Positions 3,664 through 34,715 of a stretch of DNA of 64,000 nt are shown piece by piece. The notes under the pieces are model-generated. The model ran no database searches and was not told the DNA's origin. It saw only the letters and a list, made by a program, of their open reading frames with translations. A program made the translations under genes and the position numbers. Position 1 is the first letter of the stretch, and each line of letters starts with the position of its first letter. The DNA comes from a virus, in IMG/VR virus record IMGVR_UViG_3300021964_000015; one strand, given 5' to 3'.

Positions 3664-4613
3664 TGGCTTTCTTGAAATACGCTCACGTACACCGTGCCAC
3701 TTTTTGTAAGTGGCACTAGCCTGTCCCTTAAGTCAACATTAAAACATCTAATGCAACCATGGGTGGAAAATAATGGTTGTTTGGGCTGCCATGCACCAGG
3801 CCAACCACATGCACTTCCGCCACCGTGAATCATGATGCCTGCTCTGCCATATTTTGCTTCTTGATTTTCAAGCTCAATCAAATCAAAACTATACCAACCA
3901 TAGGAAATTAACGTGCGATTAAAATAAGGAGATTCGCCATAAATTTCGTAGTCTTTATAAATGGCGCCAATTTTATAAAGCCCAGGAGGCGTGTCTGAAT
4001 TGACCACCTTCCATTCAAAATCACTATATTGTCCTCGTGCCAAGCAGGGAATTTCCCAAAGAAATTCCCCTGCGAAATTGTACGCCTTCATCGTTTCCAC
4101 TACATCATTGACGATGAGGTGGTGATCTCCTTGTTTGAAACCTTCTTGATGAGGCGTTCTATTTGGGCCAATCATTGTGACAGTGGTTGATTCTGGAGCA
4201 TATTGCTTCATCAGCTTTGAAAGCTTAACAGGATAGGAAGGGTCGGTGGCATATCCTTGCTCTTTTAACATTCTTGCTGCGGCATAACGATTGGGCGCAT
4301 TATTTACGCCTTTAAAATGCCGATAGTTTTTATACCATTTTGTAACTAAATATTCAATGCATGCATTAAGACTAGGGAAATCAATAAAACTTGCTGTGAT
4401 TGTCACCCATTGACCATCGTACCATTCTTGAGTGCTACGATTAGAACCACCTCCTTTTAAACCTAAGTAGTTATTTTTTCCTGAAGTGTGAAGTCCAAAG
4501 CCGCTTTCTAGGCAGCATTGAGCAGCAACTAATTCAGGAAATCGTGCACCATGTTTCCTGGCAATTTGGAAGCAATCGTCCCAAAAAGCCAAATTATTTT
4601 TCCACATAGCCAA
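3660..4613 (-). CDS. endolysin: GH73 glucosaminidase plus YkuD/L,D-transpeptidase-like domain
   Basis: AQCCLESG..NNYLGLK..GYATDPSY (GH73); TPPGLY..IMIHGG..THGCIR (YkuD-like). Confidence 0.85.
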   Translation of the reverse strand: MAMWKNNLAFWDDCFQIARKHGARFPELVAAQCCLESGFGLHTSGKNNYLGLKGGGSNRSTQEWYDGQWVTITASFIDFPSLNACIEYLVTKWYKNYRHFKGVNNAPNRYAAARMLKEQGYATDPSYPVKLSKLMKQYAPESTTVTMIGPNRTPHQEGFKQGDHHLIVNDVVETMKAYNFAGEFLWEIPCLARGQYSDFEWKVVNSDTPPGLYKIGAIYKDYEIYGESPYFNRTLISYGWYSFDLIELENQEAKYGRAGIMIHGGGSACGWPGAWQPKQPLFSTHGCIRCFNVDLRDRLVPLTKSGTVYVSVFQESQ

Positions 4614-4628
4614 TGGCCAATAAGTGAA

Positions 4629-4772
4629 TTAGTTCTTCACGCGAAACACAGCCTTCAGTCCAGTGAGGATGAGCTGAAGCACGTTATTTTCTTTGTAGGG
4701 AGTGCGTTCAATAATCTGGTCAGCAGCTGCAACGATAATGCCACCAATTACGAACCATTCAACGCCAGACAT
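4629..4772 (-). CDS. small membrane protein, holin candidate (47 aa)
   Basis: Read manually: MSGVEWFVIGGIIVAAADQIIERTPYKENNVLQLILTGLKAVFRVKN; directly upstream of the endolysin. Confidence 0.6.
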   Translation of the reverse strand: MSGVEWFVIGGIIVAAADQIIERTPYKENNVLQLILTGLKAVFRVKN

Positions 4773-4798
4773 TTGCTTTCCCGAGAGTTTTCTTTAGC

Positions 4799-4999
4799 TT
4801 AGCGCCTAATCTCCAAACTTCTCACTCTTGTTTCTAATTGCTGCACATTATCAGTGAGCGTATCAAGGTTTTTTGTAATAGCTTCCACTTGCGTGGTGAT
4901 CCTCATTTGCTGTTGTCCCACTGCAATTAGCATCCCACCAGATGCTAATAACATGCCCGCAGTTAGCGTAGCCACAAAGTTACTAACACCTTCGCCCAT
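4799..4999 (-). CDS. membrane-anchored coiled-coil protein (lysis module)
   Basis: N-terminal hydrophobic helix followed by a heptad pattern. Confidence 0.6.
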   Translation of the reverse strand: MGEGVSNFVATLTAGMLLASGGMLIAVGQQQMRITTQVEAITKNLDTLTDNVQQLETRVRSLEIRR

Positions 5000-5072
5000 T
5001 TGGCTTGATTCTTTTTATTTTATTATAGGAGCTTCCTTTAGTGGTAACAGTTTTTTAGACTAGCAATAGCAA

Positions 5073-5621
5073 TTGAAGATGGGCGTCATGTTTGTGGCGT
5101 ATGAGCCTGATGATTACATTACTGGACTTATTGAACTCAGGAAATCAGACGCCACCAGACGCTTTCGTAAATCAATCTTTGACGACTATCCTTTAAGGGG
5201 ACCACTAGGACAAGCAGCATGCGCATATTGTGGGCGATGGAATGAAAAACTGACCATTGATCACATTGTTCCCAAAAGCAAAGGAGGTCCTCATTTTGCG
5301 CGTTGGAACATGGTGCCAGCATGCAAGCGTTGTAATCTGGCGAAAACTAATTTGCCGGTGTTTGAATGGTGGCGACCAACCGTGCAATGGTCTGGACAGC
5401 GAGAAGAGGTGTTGATGGCTTGGACCTATGCGAATAGCTTCATTGATGCTCGCACTGATTCAGCAGAATATTGGAAGTTTCTTGCGGAAAATCGAGTGGT
5501 GCAAATGGTACAAGTGGGGCAAGAGGCAATTAAAAAAGACGAAAATCCAAGAAAAAAAGGGCCCTTTTGTGGCCCTTTTTCTTTACAAGATTTAGGAGGC
5601 ATTGGATGGGCTGCTGCTTAA
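5073..5621 (+). CDS. HNH endonuclease (McrA-like)
   Basis: [28 protein letters not shown]; true start may be ATG 5079 or 5088. Confidence 0.9.
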
Positions 5622-29167: not shown

Positions 29168-29191
29168 CACGCTTTGCGCCCCCCTTATCAT
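29164..29191 (+). promoter_or_regulatory. sigma70-type promoter, probably giving a leaderless mRNA
   Basis: TTGACA-N16-TATCAT with ATG 7 nt downstream. Confidence 0.55.
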
Positions 29192-29197
29192 GTTCGC

Positions 29198-29980
29198 ATG
29201 ATCAAACCCCTCACTGTTCTTGACCTCTTCTCGGGAATTGGTGGCTTTAGCTATGCAGCGGAACGTCTCGTCGGCGGTTTCAAGACCATCGCCTTCTGTG
29301 AGCCAGATGGAGCTTGTCAGCGTGTTCTCAACAAGCACTGGCCCAACACGCCCGTATTCCCAGATGTCCGCACGCTCTCAGCGGAAGCCGTCAAAGAGCT
29401 TTGTCCAAGTGGACTTTCTCTCGTCACTGCTGGCTTCCCCTGTCAAGACCTTAGTTGTGCAGGAAAACAACTTGGTTACGATGGGGAACGCAGTGTATTG
29501 TTCTATGAAATCATCCGTTTGGCTAGGGAGCTTAGACCTGACTTCCTCTTACTTGAAAACGTTAGAAATTTACTCTCTCACCAAAACGGGGAAACGTTCC
29601 AAGAAACCCTCTTTCAAATTGCCAAAGCAGGGTACGATGCAGAATGGGCAGTTATTCCAGCAAGTGATTTGGGAGCCTGTCATAGAAGGGAACGTATCTG
29701 GATTGTTGCCTACGCCAACAACTCGCGATTACAAAGACAGCGGACCGAATGTGAACTATCAGAAAGCAGCGGACAAAGGGCGCTTACCTGGTGCTGTGGT
29801 GATTCAATGCTCAGCCCAAAATGGGGGGGGTACATATCTAAACCCGTCCTTTGTAGAGGAGATGATGGGCTATCCCATCGGGTGGACAGACTTAAGCAAT
29901 TAGGAAATAGTATTGTTCCACAAGTTGCCGCCATTCCATTGCAGCGAATTAAAGAGCTGGCGAATTTAGAGGCTGAATGA
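29198..29980 (+). CDS. DNA (cytosine-5) methyltransferase, alpha polypeptide (motifs I-VIII and X)
   Basis: DLFSGIGG, GFPCQDLS, ENV, HRRERIW, LGNSIVPQV. Confidence 0.92.
   Translation: MIKPLTVLDLFSGIGGFSYAAERLVGGFKTIAFCEPDGACQRVLNKHWPNTPVFPDVRTLSAEAVKELCPSGLSLVTAGFPCQDLSCAGKQLGYDGERSVLFYEIIRLARELRPDFLLLENVRNLLSHQNGETFQETLFQIAKAGYDAEWAVIPASDLGACHRRERIWIVAYANNSRLQRQRTECELSESSGQRALTWCCGDSMLSPKWGGYISKPVLCRGDDGLSHRVDRLKQLGNSIVPQVAAIPLQRIKELANLEAE
29220..29903 (+). CDS. nested alternative-frame beta polypeptide of the C5 methyltransferase (TRD plus motif IX)
   Basis: 227-codon ORF in the +1 frame ending LLPTPTTRDYKD...LNPSFVEEMMGYPIGWT; start uncertain. Confidence 0.72.
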   Translation: MTSSRELVALAMQRNVSSAVSRPSPSVSQMELVSVFSTSTGPTRPYSQMSARSQRKPSKSFVQVDFLSSLLASPVKTLVVQENNLVTMGNAVYCSMKSSVWLGSLDLTSSYLKTLEIYSLTKTGKRSKKPSFKLPKQGTMQNGQLFQQVIWEPVIEGNVSGLLPTPTTRDYKDSGPNVNYQKAADKGRLPGAVVIQCSAQNGGGTYLNPSFVEEMMGYPIGWTDLSN

Positions 29981-30180
29981 AAAAGATTTGGCGACTCTGG
30001 GCTCTGTCTCTGGGTGAAAAAGCTGGAAAGCACGACCGTGAGGCGGATACGGTAGCCATAATTCGCACTTTTATTTTTGCTTCTTATTTAATTACAAACA
30101 TTGCCATCGTTGCAAACGCTTGGCGTCACTGGAATGACCAGCCATCGAGTTGTGTGCAGACATTAGGAAAGGGGGCCTGA
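29977..30180 (+). CDS. small membrane protein
   Basis: WRLWA.SLGEK....DREAD.VA.IRT plus one TM segment. Confidence 0.7.
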   Translation: MKKIWRLWALSLGEKAGKHDREADTVAIIRTFIFASYLITNIAIVANAWRHWNDQPSSCVQTLGKGA

Positions 30181-30192
30181 GCCCCCTTTCCC
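30164..30192. terminator. bidirectional terminator
   Basis: GGAAAGGGGG/CCCCCTTTCC stem between convergent units. Confidence 0.7.
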
Positions 30193-30280
30193 TTTGCCTA
30201 GCGCTTTGACGGTTTGAACGACGAGCGAACGTCGTGGCGAGGTGAAAAGCGCGTCAGCTTGCCAAGCTTACCACAGCGGT

Positions 30281-30400
30281 TCAGAACCAATGAGGCTTGG
30301 GTACGTAGGCTACGCCTCGGTAAACAAGGCTTGCCATTTGTGCTTCGCGTAGGCGAGCAGCCTTCTCAAGCTGCTGCTTGATGAGAGCGAGAGGGTTCAT
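30281..30400 (-). CDS. DUF4278-type downstream peptide (39 aa)
   Basis: MNPLALIKQQLEKAARLREAQMASLVYRGVAYVPKPHWF with L.YRGV.Y motif; GGAG upstream. Confidence 0.8.
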   Translation of the reverse strand: MNPLALIKQQLEKAARLREAQMASLVYRGVAYVPKPHWF

Positions 30401-30415
30401 GGTTGTTCTCCACAG

Positions 30416-30470
30416 CCTAGACCCCGTTCCATGTCTAGGGTGCATGCAACCTGTCGCCAGGTCGAACGTA
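30416..30470 (-). promoter_or_regulatory. glutamine-II (Downstream-peptide) riboswitch
   Basis: 5' CGUUC can pair with loop GGAACG; stems ACCUG-GCGA-CAGGU and CUAGAC/GUCUAG; upstream of a YRGV.Y peptide. Confidence 0.8.
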
Positions 30471-30486
30471 AATTCATCCTATCAAA

Positions 30487-30560
30487 TACCCCCAACAGGA
30501 TTCGAACCTGTACTGTGGCGATTTTAAGTCGCGTGTCTCTACCAGTTGGACTATGGGGGC
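30487..30560 (-). tRNA. trnL: tRNA-Leu(TAA), short variable loop, no encoded CCA
   Basis: GCCCCCA/TGGGGGT-A acceptor, GTC/GAC D-stem, CTTAAAA loop, ACAGG-TTCGAAT-CCTGT T-arm. Confidence 0.9.
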
Positions 30561-30561
30561 A

Positions 30562-30731
30562 TGAGCAGAAGCGGAACGCATTAGTCCCATAATGGTCGTG
30601 CGGCGACCCTTCTGCCTGCTTCATCGCCGTGTTGCACGGCAGCATAAAGAATCTTCCCCTTTCTTTATGCAAGAGGTCATGAGCCTCGTAAGCCATATGG
30701 GCGTCCCCGCATGGCTGCATCGCGAATGCAG
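30562..30731 (-). ncRNA. putative multi-hairpin ncRNA upstream of tRNA-Leu
   Basis: TATACT -10 at 30736-30741 followed by five adjacent hairpins and a branched domain. Confidence 0.55.
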
Positions 30732-30747
30732 GAAAAGTATAGCTTAT

Positions 30748-30888
30748 TTACTGGCGCCATGACCAATAGACAACGCCTCCTTTTTCAAGGATGCACCGAT
30801 GGTAATGGCGAGCTTCTGAAAGCGGGATGCAAGTTTGATGCTTCCTTCCATCGATGATGTATTGAATGCAAACAGTATTGCCATTCAT
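30748..30888 (-). CDS. hypothetical protein (46 aa)
   Basis: Read manually; ATGA overlap with the CP12-like gene. Confidence 0.5.
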   Translation of the reverse strand: MNGNTVCIQYIIDGRKHQTCIPLSEARHYHRCILEKGGVVYWSWRQ

Positions 30889-31127
30889 ACGTCGTACACG
30901 CGACATTCCAAGGCGTAAGGATGGAGGGCGCAGAAATTGTCCAATTGTATTGACGTGTCGAAAGGGTGGCTCATCTCCTGGCGATATGCGTCCATTGCGG
31001 CGTTGTATTGTTTTTGTGCATTATTTGCTTCTTCACTATCAGAGCCATGCGTGTTGAATGCCATGGTTAAATCAAAAGAAGCATCTACGACTTTTGCGAA
31101 AGACTGATGGAGATGTTCGCTGTCCAT
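30885..31127 (-). CDS. cp12: CP12-like protein
   Basis: C-terminal LDNFCALHPYALECRVYDV matches the CP12 C-x8-C-R-x-Y-D motif. Confidence 0.75.
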   Translation of the reverse strand: MDSEHLHQSFAKVVDASFDLTMAFNTHGSDSEEANNAQKQYNAAMDAYRQEMSHPFDTSIQLDNFCALHPYALECRVYDV

Positions 31128-31372: not shown

Positions 31373-32746
31373 TTACAGGAAATTTTCAAGCCAATTGGCT
31401 TCATCATCTTTATTGGCTGCATGAATGCCTGCCGCCAATGCAAATGCATGGTCGTCAATACCAGTTTGCTTACCACCAGTGACTGACCATTGTCCACCAG
31501 CCTTATAGACAACAGTGAGGTTTTTGATTTCGGAAATAGCCTTTTCGTGGTTATAGATGTTGACTTGCCCAGCATTGAACAATTCGCGCATTTTTGAAAA
31601 TGCTTTTGTCTTGGAGCTAAGTGTCCAAGTGAGTTCTTCAATGGGGAAATCACCAGAGAGTGCTTGAATGGTGCCAGCACTGTTGTATTGGTCCATGACA
31701 ATCTTTTCAAACACATATAGCTTGTGTTGTTCTCGTATCCAATCTTCCACTGCATTGATATTCACTTCTTTCCTTCCATTGATTTCAAAATCAGCCACAA
31801 ACGTGTGGAATTTATCCACCACTAAAGTTCCATTATCAAAATGAACAATACAAGCAGTGTAATTGTCTCGACCAATGCCGCCGCGAGCAGGGTCAAGAGA
31901 AAGGACGTAAGAACCAACAAAACGCTCTTCTGGAGGAAGAGCTTTCCTTTTATCATCAATGCACGCTTCAACAACATCAGGAGAAATTAGGGCAGAAAGA
32001 TTAGCTGAGAATTGAGCGCCATATTCAACGTTAAATTTATCTGGATCACGCTGGCGTTCTAGATCAAGGAATTCACGAGAGATGGTTGGGTTCATCTCCC
32101 ATGTTGGGAGGTTTACTGCTTGAAGGTGAGGAAATCTTCCTGATGCTGCTTCTTTGAAATGTTGATAGAAGAGTCCATCAGTTAGCCATGGTGAGGATAG
32201 TTCAAGGATTTTGCCATCTTTACCGAACTGTGCAACTGCTGGCGAGAGTGCTTGATAAATGCCATTAGCGCCCGAGTTTGCATCTCCATCAACGGCAAAT
32301 GCGAGTTCGTCAAACACGCAAGCGCAACATGCAAGACCACGAGCGGCCCTACCAGAAGTGGGAATTGCTTTGAATACACAACCATTGCTCATTTCTAATT
32401 GATCTGCAGTTTCGCGGGCGATTTCTTGCGCGAAAGGGCTATCAAGGATGAGCTGACGGATGTTATTAAGGGCAATACGGCTTTGGTCTTGACTATTGGC
32501 AACGGTAAGGACGTACCACTTTTCTCCTTTTCTTACTTTCGCTTTGTATTTATCTTCTAAAACAAAGCAAATGTAAACGCAGGCTACTGCGGCCATCAAC
32601 GTTTTACCGCTGCGTCGTCCAAGTGCCCATGTTGCTTGTGAATAGCCTCCTGCGAAAAAGCTATCAAGAATTTCGGACTGTTTTGGATAGAGTTCAAGAC
32701 GCAGAGCGTGCTTAGCGAAATCAGAGCAAGAAAGCCTGGTCATCAC
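31373..32746 (-). CDS. terL: terminase large subunit
   Basis: LYPKQ, GRRSGKT, VFDE, SSP, SLDPA nuclease motif, DDHAFA. Confidence 0.92.
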   Translation of the reverse strand: MMTRLSCSDFAKHALRLELYPKQSEILDSFFAGGYSQATWALGRRSGKTLMAAVACVYICFVLEDKYKAKVRKGEKWYVLTVANSQDQSRIALNNIRQLILDSPFAQEIARETADQLEMSNGCVFKAIPTSGRAARGLACCACVFDELAFAVDGDANSGANGIYQALSPAVAQFGKDGKILELSSPWLTDGLFYQHFKEAASGRFPHLQAVNLPTWEMNPTISREFLDLERQRDPDKFNVEYGAQFSANLSALISPDVVEACIDDKRKALPPEERFVGSYVLSLDPARGGIGRDNYTACIVHFDNGTLVVDKFHTFVADFEINGRKEVNINAVEDWIREQHKLYVFEKIVMDQYNSAGTIQALSGDFPIEELTWTLSSKTKAFSKMRELFNAGQVNIYNHEKAISEIKNLTVVYKAGGQWSVTGGKQTGIDDHAFALAAGIHAANKDDEANWLENFL

Positions 32747-32834: not shown

Positions 32835-34715
32835 ATGGCAGACATTACAAGCAGCGAGGATTTGGTGCAATTGGGCCACAATTCTGGATATGGAATGCGT
32901 GCTGATGGTCTTCAGAATGTATTTACTGGCATGGGCACTAGTCGTGATAAAACGACTAGGACCACAGTTAAGCCAGTCACATTTATGGGGCATGAAGACC
33001 TTGAAGGTCTTTATGCGCATTGGTTGATGCGGCGCATTGTTGATCTAGTTGCAGATGAATGCACGCGAGAAGGATTTGAGATTTTATTTGGTGGTGAAGG
33101 CGTGAATGCAGAAACGCTTTCTGGCGTGGAGCAATCAATTGAAGATTTAGGCATTTTGCCCGCCTTTAATGAGGCGGCCAAAACATCACGACTTTATGGC
33201 GGCAGCGCACTTCTTTTGTACATCGATGATGGTCGTCCGTCTGATATGCCAGTGGACAAAAATAACATTCGTGCCGTTGAGGGCATGGAATGTTTGGACC
33301 GGCATCAAATTGCGCCAATCATTAGTGAAGATAGCCTCTATGACTATTCCAAGGCCACATATTATCAAATCATTTCAGGCGATTTAATTCAGCAGCCTAA
33401 TTTACGCGCCATTCATAAGGATAGGATTTTGCGTTTTGATGGCATTTGGTTGCCTTATCGCACCCGTCAGAAAAACTATGGATGGGGGATGAGTGTATTA
33501 CAAAGCGTGTATGAGAGCTTTAAGCATTACTACAGTGGCACTTCCTCCATTGCCACCCTTCTTACTGAATTTGACATTTTTGTGCACAAAGTGAGGGGCT
33601 TGGCTTCAATGCTTGCTGCTGGCAAGGAAAGTCAAGTGCGGGATAGGCTGCAGCTTAATGATATGAGCAAGAGCATTTATCGCGGCTATGCAATTGATGC
33701 GGAAAAAGAAGAGCTTGCTTTTGTTAGTCGTCAATTTGGTGGTGTTTCTGAAATCCTTGAAAAGCTAAGGATTGATATTATTGCTGCTTCTGGCATTCCA
33801 CACACATTGTTATTTGGCCAATCACCTTCTGGACTTGGTGCCACTGGTCGTAGTGAAGAACGTGATTTTGCAAAAGTTTGCCACCATTATCAGGAGACAA
33901 ATTTCCGGAAGCCATTGATGAAGCTGATGGAATACATCATGCTGAGCAAAAATGGCCCAACAAATGGTCGAATGCCAGACAATTGGCGAGTGAGCTTTAA
34001 GCCATTGTTTGAAATGAACGAAAGAGAGCTTGCTGACGTGAGAGCACGAGTGGCAGCAGTTGATGCTCGTTACATTCAAGTGGGAGTGCTTACGCCACAA
34101 GAAGTTGCTGATTCGCGGTTTGGAAAGAGCGAATACAGTATTGAGACCACCATTGATCCAAGTATTAAGCGGGAAATACCTGCAAAGGATGGTGGGAGCA
34201 GCGGCAAGATGGCAGTGCCTCCTGGTGGTCGTGATCCTTTGGATCAGGCAAATGGAAGCCTTCCAATGGATGGATCGCGTGATGCATCGCCTGACGCTTC
34301 GACGATGGATGAGGCTGGTTTGTATTTATCGAGAGATCTTGAAGCGGAACGCGGGGATGTTGAATTTAAAGACAAAGAGCTGCACAAAAAGGCAATTGCT
34401 GCAGCAAAGGCCAAGTTTAAGACTTGGCCTAGTGCAGTGGCTGGTGCTTATGTAACGCGAAAGTACAAAGAATTGTATAAGCGTAAGCATGGTTCATTGT
34501 CTGGTGCTTTCAAGGGTAAGAAGACCACTGCAGAGTATTTCAAGAAAGATGCCATCACTCCATTGAAGACTGAGGGCACCATTCTTGGTGGTATTGACGA
34601 AGCCGCGTTGATTTCCGAAGAGGACATCAATGCAGCATTGAATCAATGGAAACAGGAAGCTCCTGACAGGTTTAAGGACATCTTGGAGGCGGGTGATGTT
34701 GAGTCCGCTGAGTGA
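32835..34715 (+). CDS. portal protein (DUF1073-like) with C-terminal extension
   Basis: RRIVD..ADE.TREG, SRLYGG, IHKDRIL, WG.SVLQ, SGIP.TLLFGQSP.GL.ATG. Confidence 0.88.
   Translation: MADITSSEDLVQLGHNSGYGMRADGLQNVFTGMGTSRDKTTRTTVKPVTFMGHEDLEGLYAHWLMRRIVDLVADECTREGFEILFGGEGVNAETLSGVEQSIEDLGILPAFNEAAKTSRLYGGSALLLYIDDGRPSDMPVDKNNIRAVEGMECLDRHQIAPIISEDSLYDYSKATYYQIISGDLIQQPNLRAIHKDRILRFDGIWLPYRTRQKNYGWGMSVLQSVYESFKHYYSGTSSIATLLTEFDIFVHKVRGLASMLAAGKESQVRDRLQLNDMSKSIYRGYAIDAEKEELAFVSRQFGGVSEILEKLRIDIIAASGIPHTLLFGQSPSGLGATGRSEERDFAKVCHHYQETNFRKPLMKLMEYIMLSKNGPTNGRMPDNWRVSFKPLFEMNERELADVRARVAAVDARYIQVGVLTPQEVADSRFGKSEYSIETTIDPSIKREIPAKDGGSSGKMAVPPGGRDPLDQANGSLPMDGSRDASPDASTMDEAGLYLSRDLEAERGDVEFKDKELHKKAIAAAKAKFKTWPSAVAGAYVTRKYKELYKRKHGSLSGAFKGKKTTAEYFKKDAITPLKTEGTILGGIDEAALISEEDINAALNQWKQEAPDRFKDILEAGDVESAE

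Follow-up and report, generated by a model that had tools for sequence, protein, structure and literature searches.

The stretch of DNA considered here, hereafter the window, comprises 64,000 nucleotides (nt) of IMG/VR virus record IMGVR_UViG_3300021964_000015. It is phage DNA, and its nearest cultured relative is the Synechococcus siphovirus S-CBS4. The minus strand of the window carries a compact island in which a CP12-like gene, a small coupled gene, a structured non-coding RNA (ncRNA), a transfer RNA (tRNA) gene and a glutamine riboswitch that leads a short peptide gene follow one another, and which appears likely to be served by two promoters. The gene order is identical in S-CBS4, with 68% nucleotide identity across the island. 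An earlier reading made from the letters alone (the original prediction) had listed a cp12-like open reading frame (ORF), a 46-amino-acid (aa) ORF, a promoter, a multi-hairpin RNA, a tRNA-Leu, a glutamine-II riboswitch, a YRGV.Y peptide, a structured 3′ region and a terminator; each was found, all on the minus strand and within less than 1 kb. In the direction of transcription, the features of the island are the following (UTR, untranslated region; E, expectation value; bp, base pairs).

30885..31127, minus strand: CP12-like gene, 80 aa (Pfam PF02672, 28.8 bits against a cut-off of 22.7)
30748..30888, minus strand: conserved 46-aa ORF (frame open and conserved in relatives)
30736..30765, minus strand: predicted promoter P1, TGGTCA, 18 nt, TATACT (consensus scan; predicted start G30729)
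30562..30729, minus strand: structured ncRNA, ~168 nt, folded into 7-8 helices whose loops do not vary (fold and covariation)
30486..30561, minus strand: tRNA-Leu(UAA), 76 nt (ARAGORN; Rfam 55.7 bits)
30476..30484, minus strand: predicted promoter P2, an extended -10, TG plus one base plus TAGGAT (predicted start A30469)
30415..30471, minus strand: glutamine-II (type 2, Downstream-peptide) aptamer (RF01704, 43.9 bits against a gathering score of 33, E 2e-7)
30281..30400, minus strand: 39-aa peptide with the motif YRGVAY (phrog_545, E 1.4e-11)
30201..30274, minus strand: structured 3′UTR element, an outer 7-bp stem around a 6-bp hairpin plus a 5′ hairpin (z -2.81)
30165..30192, minus strand: terminator hairpin with a 12-bp G+C-rich stem, a 4-nt loop and a weak U-tract (fold)

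In the GenBank record of S-CBS4 (HQ698895, ~4250-5340), only three hypothetical proteins are annotated in this region; the record omits the ncRNA, the 46-aa ORF, the glutamine riboswitch and a tRNA-Thr, all of which the phage has. On the minus strand of HQ698895, the predicted ncRNA start corresponds to position 4705 and the A of ACGUUC to position 4439. Related viral loci (n=80), with the island downstream of the large terminase gene (terL), were gathered from motif scans and a TerL-based search; three chance matches of the first motif scan (L002, L003, L009) were discarded. Presence was counted in 77 island stretches: a 62-aa ORF follows terL in all 77, and the 39-aa peptide is present in 68, the 46-aa ORF in 26 and the cp12-like gene in 24. 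The relatives split into clade A (TerL 85-99% identical), which includes the window, and clade B (~77%), which has neither the cp12-like gene nor the 46-aa ORF. The original prediction had described the locus as an island, a term that suits it as a hot spot for cargo genes but, given how differently cp12 and the 46-aa ORF (24-26 stretches) and the peptide (68) are distributed, not as a single unit.

Transcription of the central part of the locus would begin at P1, whose -10 hexamer TATACT lies at 30741-30736 with TGGTCA 18 nt upstream. Numbered from the G of the 5′ hairpin of the ncRNA, T-12, A-11, T-10 and T-7 are fixed in 35 of 35 distinct relatives. The 168 nt that separate the promoter from the tRNA fold with a minimum free energy of -70.7 kcal/mol (z -3.84), a stability equalled by none of 200 shuffled sequences. 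In alignment A3, which holds 12 clade-A sequences, compensatory changes occur in 21 of 41 pairs, where shuffles give 9.5 +/- 2.0 and slid controls 5-8; 95.1% of the cells pair, compared with 86.2% in shuffles, and none of 500 shuffles reaches the observed covariation. The stems vary, while the loops and many junction bases are invariant, and many of the pairs are G-U wobbles that become A-C mismatches on the opposite strand and thus fit the minus strand only. Model R1, derived from the ncRNA alignment, matched 28 relatives at E<0.01 and found no match in 3 + 151 picocyanobacterial genomes (the 151 being Cyanobiaceae), a sample and not proof of absence. An Rfam 15 search with the ncRNA of the window, L175 and L135 returned only noise (E up to 5-10) and no family. 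These comparisons clearly show the upstream RNA to be structured and under selection, and to form a real family for which Rfam gave no match.

The RNA of clade B has a different body with covariation of its own (compensatory changes in 15 of 41 pairs), which model R1 did not reach. The kinship of the two subtypes is suggested by their common promoter, their position and their 5′ hairpin, in which an A-U pair in one clade is swapped to U-A in the other. Because of this swap, a local 5′ hairpin is favoured over helix 1 of the predicted fold, in which the 5′ end pairs with the GAUGAAGC stretch; helix 1 shows no covariation and was rejected. The invariant 26-nt 5′ motif of the clade-B RNA occurs in at least 120 viral contigs, and the ncRNA, with both subtypes taken together, is spread over ~145 or more.

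The tRNA gene that follows folds as a cloverleaf with a UAA anticodon and an A73 discriminator; CCA is not encoded, and a 5-nt variable loop stands in place of the long variable arm typical of bacterial tRNA-Leu. The short tRNA-Leu was considered as a novelty and rejected as such, similar short genes being annotated in S-CREM1 and Bacillus phage P59. In relatives, the same slot holds a short tRNA-Leu(UAA) of 74-77 nt, a long-arm form of 82-90 nt or one of two tRNA-Thr(UGU) types, or it is empty (L130-L209). The tRNA gene is an exchangeable cassette, of Leu or Thr type or absent altogether. In tRNA-less alleles, a few bases resembling tRNA ends are kept between the ncRNA and P2, which suggests an interior deletion of the tRNA. 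An own -10-like element (TAnnnT) upstream of the tRNA is missing in 30 of 31 distinct contexts, and the tRNA must therefore be transcribed through the ncRNA from P1. TTA makes up 15% of Leu codons in the phage and 3% in sampled host loci; the tRNA may supply the UUA codon, which is used far more by the A+T-richer phage than by its host, the usual reason for which phages carry tRNAs.

The gap from the tRNA discriminator (30487) to the A of ACGUUC (30469) measures 17 nt, the spacing given by the original prediction, which had also seen no evident promoter there. This second point did not hold: an extended -10 lies in the gap, at a position conserved in all relatives, with TG at 30484-30483 and TAGGAT at 30481-30476, so that the hexamer occupies -12 to -7 from the A of ACGUUC (TGnTAnnnT). 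T-12, A-11 and T-7 are present in 36 of 36 distinct contexts, G-14 in 29 and T-15 in 28, and position -10 is free. On a wider pattern, TAnnnT at -12 to -7 is found in 40 of 40 distinct relatives, with the upstream TG in 30 of them; elsewhere, the hexamer occurs in 2 of 32 host loci and in 8 of 127 other viral riboswitch contexts. The original prediction had named a separate start for the riboswitch as the outcome contrary to it, and such a start is what the 40 of 40 hexamers point to, as far as comparative sequence can show.

It could be argued that P1 is the sole promoter, that the riboswitch mRNA arises only from RNase P and RNase Z cleavage, and that TAnnnT is a processing or spacer signal. 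The tRNA indeed lacks a promoter of its own, and no terminator was found between the tRNA and the riboswitch or P2 in the window or most relatives; moreover, cyanobacteria are not known to have Rho, so P1 transcripts should continue into the riboswitch. This explanation is nevertheless unlikely. The hexamer holds the exact -12 to -7 geometry of a promoter, its middle bases vary freely and a TG lies upstream; it is also retained in the tRNA-less alleles, which offer no substrate for tRNA processing. The P2 hexamer of L159 and L152 comes immediately after a terminator hairpin and T-run, so the riboswitch mRNA of these phages must have a start of its own. Finally, several unrelated phage contigs show full TTGACT-17-TAnnnT promoters in the same register as P2.

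Altogether, these comparisons favour, with reasonable though not strong confidence, a model in which P1 serves the ncRNA and the tRNA, with read-through and tRNA processing, while P2 provides a separate start for the riboswitch mRNA. P1 would start the folded RNA of ~168 nt, which would run directly into the promoter-less tRNA, and an RNase P cut at the tRNA 5′ end would define the 3′ end of the ncRNA. P2, a -35-independent extended -10 in the 17-nt gap, would start the riboswitch mRNA at the A of ACGUUC; glutamine binding would then switch on translation of the 39-aa IF17-like peptide, and an optional 3′UTR element and the terminator would close this unit. Upstream, the cp12-like gene and the translationally coupled 46-aa gene would form a first module. 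Because no terminator separates the tRNA from the riboswitch here, read-through from P1 and a cut by tRNA processing are also to be expected, and 3′ processing of the tRNA in the read-through transcript would release a second, 5′-extended riboswitch mRNA. Single-transcript cutting and an independent start at P2 would then coexist. The comparisons establish the features themselves, how far each is conserved or modular, and the covariation of the RNA; that the promoters are active, that processing takes place, where the RNAs end and what the ncRNA and the peptide do is what we infer from them.

That the units are separable is shown by one relative (L136), in which the ncRNA and the tRNA are kept while P2 and the whole riboswitch-peptide unit are gone. 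The proposal that tRNA processing cuts one transcript in three is consequently retained in part. The promoter-less tRNA, the gap without a terminator and the selected upstream RNA speak for it; the conserved P2, kept without a tRNA and behind a terminator, and the split seen in L136 speak against it as the whole account. Taken jointly with the two-promoter model, and held with the same confidence, the site would be an accessory-gene hot spot downstream of terL in S-CBS4-like cyanosiphoviruses, occupied by separable modules. The tRNA cluster of phage T4 includes the small stable RNAs C and D, which share a transcript with the tRNAs and are freed when the tRNAs are processed. The ncRNA described here has no sequence or structural relation to them, and, unlike in T4, it accompanies a single tRNA that may be swapped or absent and has its own conserved promoter.

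The role assigned to the upstream RNA admits other readings. It may be a cis-acting leader, riboswitch-like or protein-binding, that controls read-through into, or the stability of, the tRNA and peptide mRNA rather than a free-standing product. Such a leader would be suited by the many loop and junction bases that stay fixed while neighbouring stems covary, by the constant position of the RNA directly upstream of the tRNA and/or the riboswitch unit, and by the lack of a terminator after it in most alleles. We give this possibility a low probability, since in the subclade of L159 and L152 the RNA ends in a terminator of its own, and since it shows no evident alternative terminator/antiterminator pairing, and is kept with or without the tRNA and, in L136, without the riboswitch unit. 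Still more speculatively, and rather improbably, the ~170-nt RNA could be a new class of complex-folded phage RNA, metabolite-sensing or host-factor-binding, that is tied to carbon/nitrogen status and forms a two-sensor unit with the glutamine riboswitch; this idea is compatible with the fixed loops next to stems that covary, with the promoter that the RNA has to itself, with its spread and with the lack of matches in the host genomes sampled. That the apparent ncRNA is instead a DNA-level element (a packaging or recombination site by the terminase gene) or a long functionless tRNA leader is very improbable: its position ~650 nt downstream of terL and the exchange of tRNA cassettes right beside it would fit, but not the many G-U wobbles that are A-C mismatches on the other strand, the conserved promoter exactly 7 nt upstream, the invariant loops with covarying stems, or the retention of the RNA where the tRNA is lost.

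In the two-promoter model, P2 leads into the glutamine-II aptamer. The RF01704 match in the window is full length (model positions 1-60), the S-CBS4 copy scores 44.9 bits, and the pseudoknot CGUUC/GAACG is replaced by CGUUG/CAACG in six relatives, a double compensatory change. The 39-aa ORF begins 14 nt past the aptamer, which places the aptamer in the 5′ leader of a short YRG-type ORF; most other viral copies come after a stop codon or another aptamer. In host type 2 loci of marine picocyanobacteria (yfr6/MED4 DUF4278 gene; Klahn et al. 2018, PMC6212724; Weinberg et al. 2010, PMC2864571), RF01704 likewise lies directly before a short YRG-motif ORF. According to Klahn et al. (PMC6212724), binding of glutamine to the type 2 riboswitch turns on the translation of IF17-like genes of the DUF4278 type, which in the host are repressed by NtcA; the response to glutamine has been demonstrated for the Prochlorococcus MED4 copy only (PMC6212724). 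By analogy with host type 2 copies, the phage aptamer would be expected to turn translation on with bound glutamine.

The upstream regions differ. Host copies have a -10 followed by a perfect GTA-N8-TAC NtcA box that ends 1-4 nt before the aptamer (30 of 32 loci), with the start ~20 nt upstream. In the window, no NtcA box was found at P2, and the -10 puts the start at the first base of the aptamer. The phage copy may thus have lost the NtcA box and kept only glutamine sensing, a suggestion that comes from comparing the sequences. In a subclade formed by L157, L159 and L163 (3 of 40 distinct contexts), an NtcA-type GTA-N8-TAC overlaps the -10 hexamer of P2; it could be a chance match or a repressor-type site. 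Glutamine-riboswitch cassettes have been mentioned for T4-like cyanophages (PMC9964418). Other cyanophage cassettes, with tandem aptamers and an NtcA box, likewise have a glutamine aptamer before DUF4278-type micro-proteins, and some of their promoters start at the A of ACGUUC; the window differs from them in being that of a siphovirus, with a single aptamer that follows a structured ncRNA and a tRNA at a distance of 17 nt, and with no NtcA box. In the phage contigs L010, L016/L020, L071/L081, L102 and L118, GTA-N8-TAC, TTGACT, 17 nt and TAnnnT would lead to a start at the A of ACGUUC of a tandem glutamine riboswitch.

The peptide consists of a helix-like N-terminal MNxLxLIK segment followed by one YRG motif, in which Y27, R28 and G29 are invariant; it differs in this from the host peptides examined (~55 aa), which have three YRG-type repeats. 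It is identical in 18 relatives from both clades. The peptides of relatives match DUF4278 (PF14105) weakly in 11 of 12 cases (best E 0.048). A word-based homologue search with a 43-aa relative gave only two close clusters, and a profile search found 144 cluster representatives, two of them above the DUF4278 cut-off: P0019 and P0020, found at ~E 1e-10, pass PF14105 at 45.6 and 38.8 bits. The peptide would accordingly be assigned, on this profile link to true members, to a phage-type DUF4278/IF17-like family. L220, a contig binned as a Gammaproteobacteria metagenome-assembled genome, likewise combines an MNVL...YRG peptide with a glutamine-II aptamer and a promoter of the phage type; it is probably a phage contig in the wrong bin.

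The CP12-like protein carries, by sequence reading, a C-terminal loop C-x3-P-x4-C-R-x-Y-D (Cys66...Cys75-Arg-Val-Tyr-Asp); in the window and its relatives, the AWD_VEEL core is degenerate and the N-terminal Cys pair (PRK side) is missing. A search of PDB sequences gave no match at E up to 10. Cyanophage CP12 is a known auxiliary metabolic gene (PF02672), which the window protein resembles in its small size and its C-terminal Cys-Pro-Cys-Arg-x-Tyr-Asp loop, the part that in cellular CP12 binds GAPDH. A block of the Calvin cycle through GAPDH binding is the role we infer for the gene. Unlike cyanophage CP12, the window protein has neither the AWD_VEEL core nor the N-terminal Cys pair, and a conserved gene for a 46-aa partner is coupled to its own.

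The start codon of this partner (30888-30748) overlaps the cp12 stop in an ATGA or GTGA arrangement, as for translational coupling. The original prediction was correct that a 46-aa ORF is present, but two such ORFs overlap here, and the one that plain ORF calling offers as an alternative (30884-30744) is interrupted by stop codons in relatives, whereas 30888-30748 is conserved. No Pfam match was found for the 46-aa protein, and a word-based homologue search came back empty. Its AlphaFold2 (AF2) model (pLDDT 93.3) is a small beta-beta-alpha-beta fold, for which Foldseek and VIA-align both rank PDB chains of the small phycobilisome linker domain (CpcD/ApcC) first; a VP...GG.I stretch is shared with them. 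These matches have E 0.06 or worse and Z 5.7-6.9, level with unrelated chains; the hhalign P against the CpcD linker (PF01383) is 0.005, and phages of non-photosynthetic hosts commonly have this fold as well. A CpcD-like identity, suggested by the structural model, is at most a weak lead.

At the other end of the riboswitch unit, the structured 3′UTR element shows compensatory changes in 8 of 20 pairs of alignment A8, drawn from 7 phages of both clades. It is missing in S-CBS4 and many other relatives, and is thus an optional module. The predicted terminator is present as a 12-bp hairpin, but its U-tract is poor in the window; at the same place, relatives have a canonical hairpin and T-run. 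The hairpin faces convergent plus-strand genes. A 67-aa plus-strand ORF at 29977-30180 (phrog_1679, E 8.5e-30) runs toward the island and has its end within the hairpin, which may therefore stop transcription from both sides.

Several observations weigh against the two-promoter model and the functions attached to it. The P2 hexamer of the window, TAGGAT, is a modest match and has no -35, and the start sites of both P1 and P2 are predictions drawn from consensus and conservation. All relatives come from one lineage of phages (TerL 76-99% identical), and inheritance may account for part of the conservation. At the downstream end, the terminator site, with its poor U-tract, is not listed by a terminator scan. 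The peptide itself scores 12.9 bits against Pfam DUF4278 (PF14105), below the cut-off of 25.3, and short IF17-like proteins are without the residues known to contact glutamine synthetase (Klahn et al., PMC6212724).

The island is flanked by the following genes.

31373-32746, minus strand: large terminase (terL)
32835-34715, plus strand: portal gene
29174-29980, plus strand: C5 methyltransferase

The C5 methyltransferase covers only the first half of its Pfam model, and a nested 227-codon ORF in another frame (29220-29903) holds apparent C-terminal methyltransferase motifs, which suggests a frameshifted or two-frame gene.

The structured RNA family is a widespread and well-supported addition to the few known cyanophage non-coding RNAs. 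The glutamine-sensing switch of the host is present also in siphoviruses, beyond the T4-like cyanophages, and appears rewired here, with the NtcA box gone and the start at the first base of the aptamer; the virus would then answer to glutamine and not to the host 2-oxoglutarate/NtcA signal. The alleles of the tRNA slot (short Leu, long Leu, Thr and none) form a natural series in which the gain, loss and expression of phage tRNAs can be followed. S-CBS4 is in culture and has the identical layout, which opens these predictions to laboratory testing.

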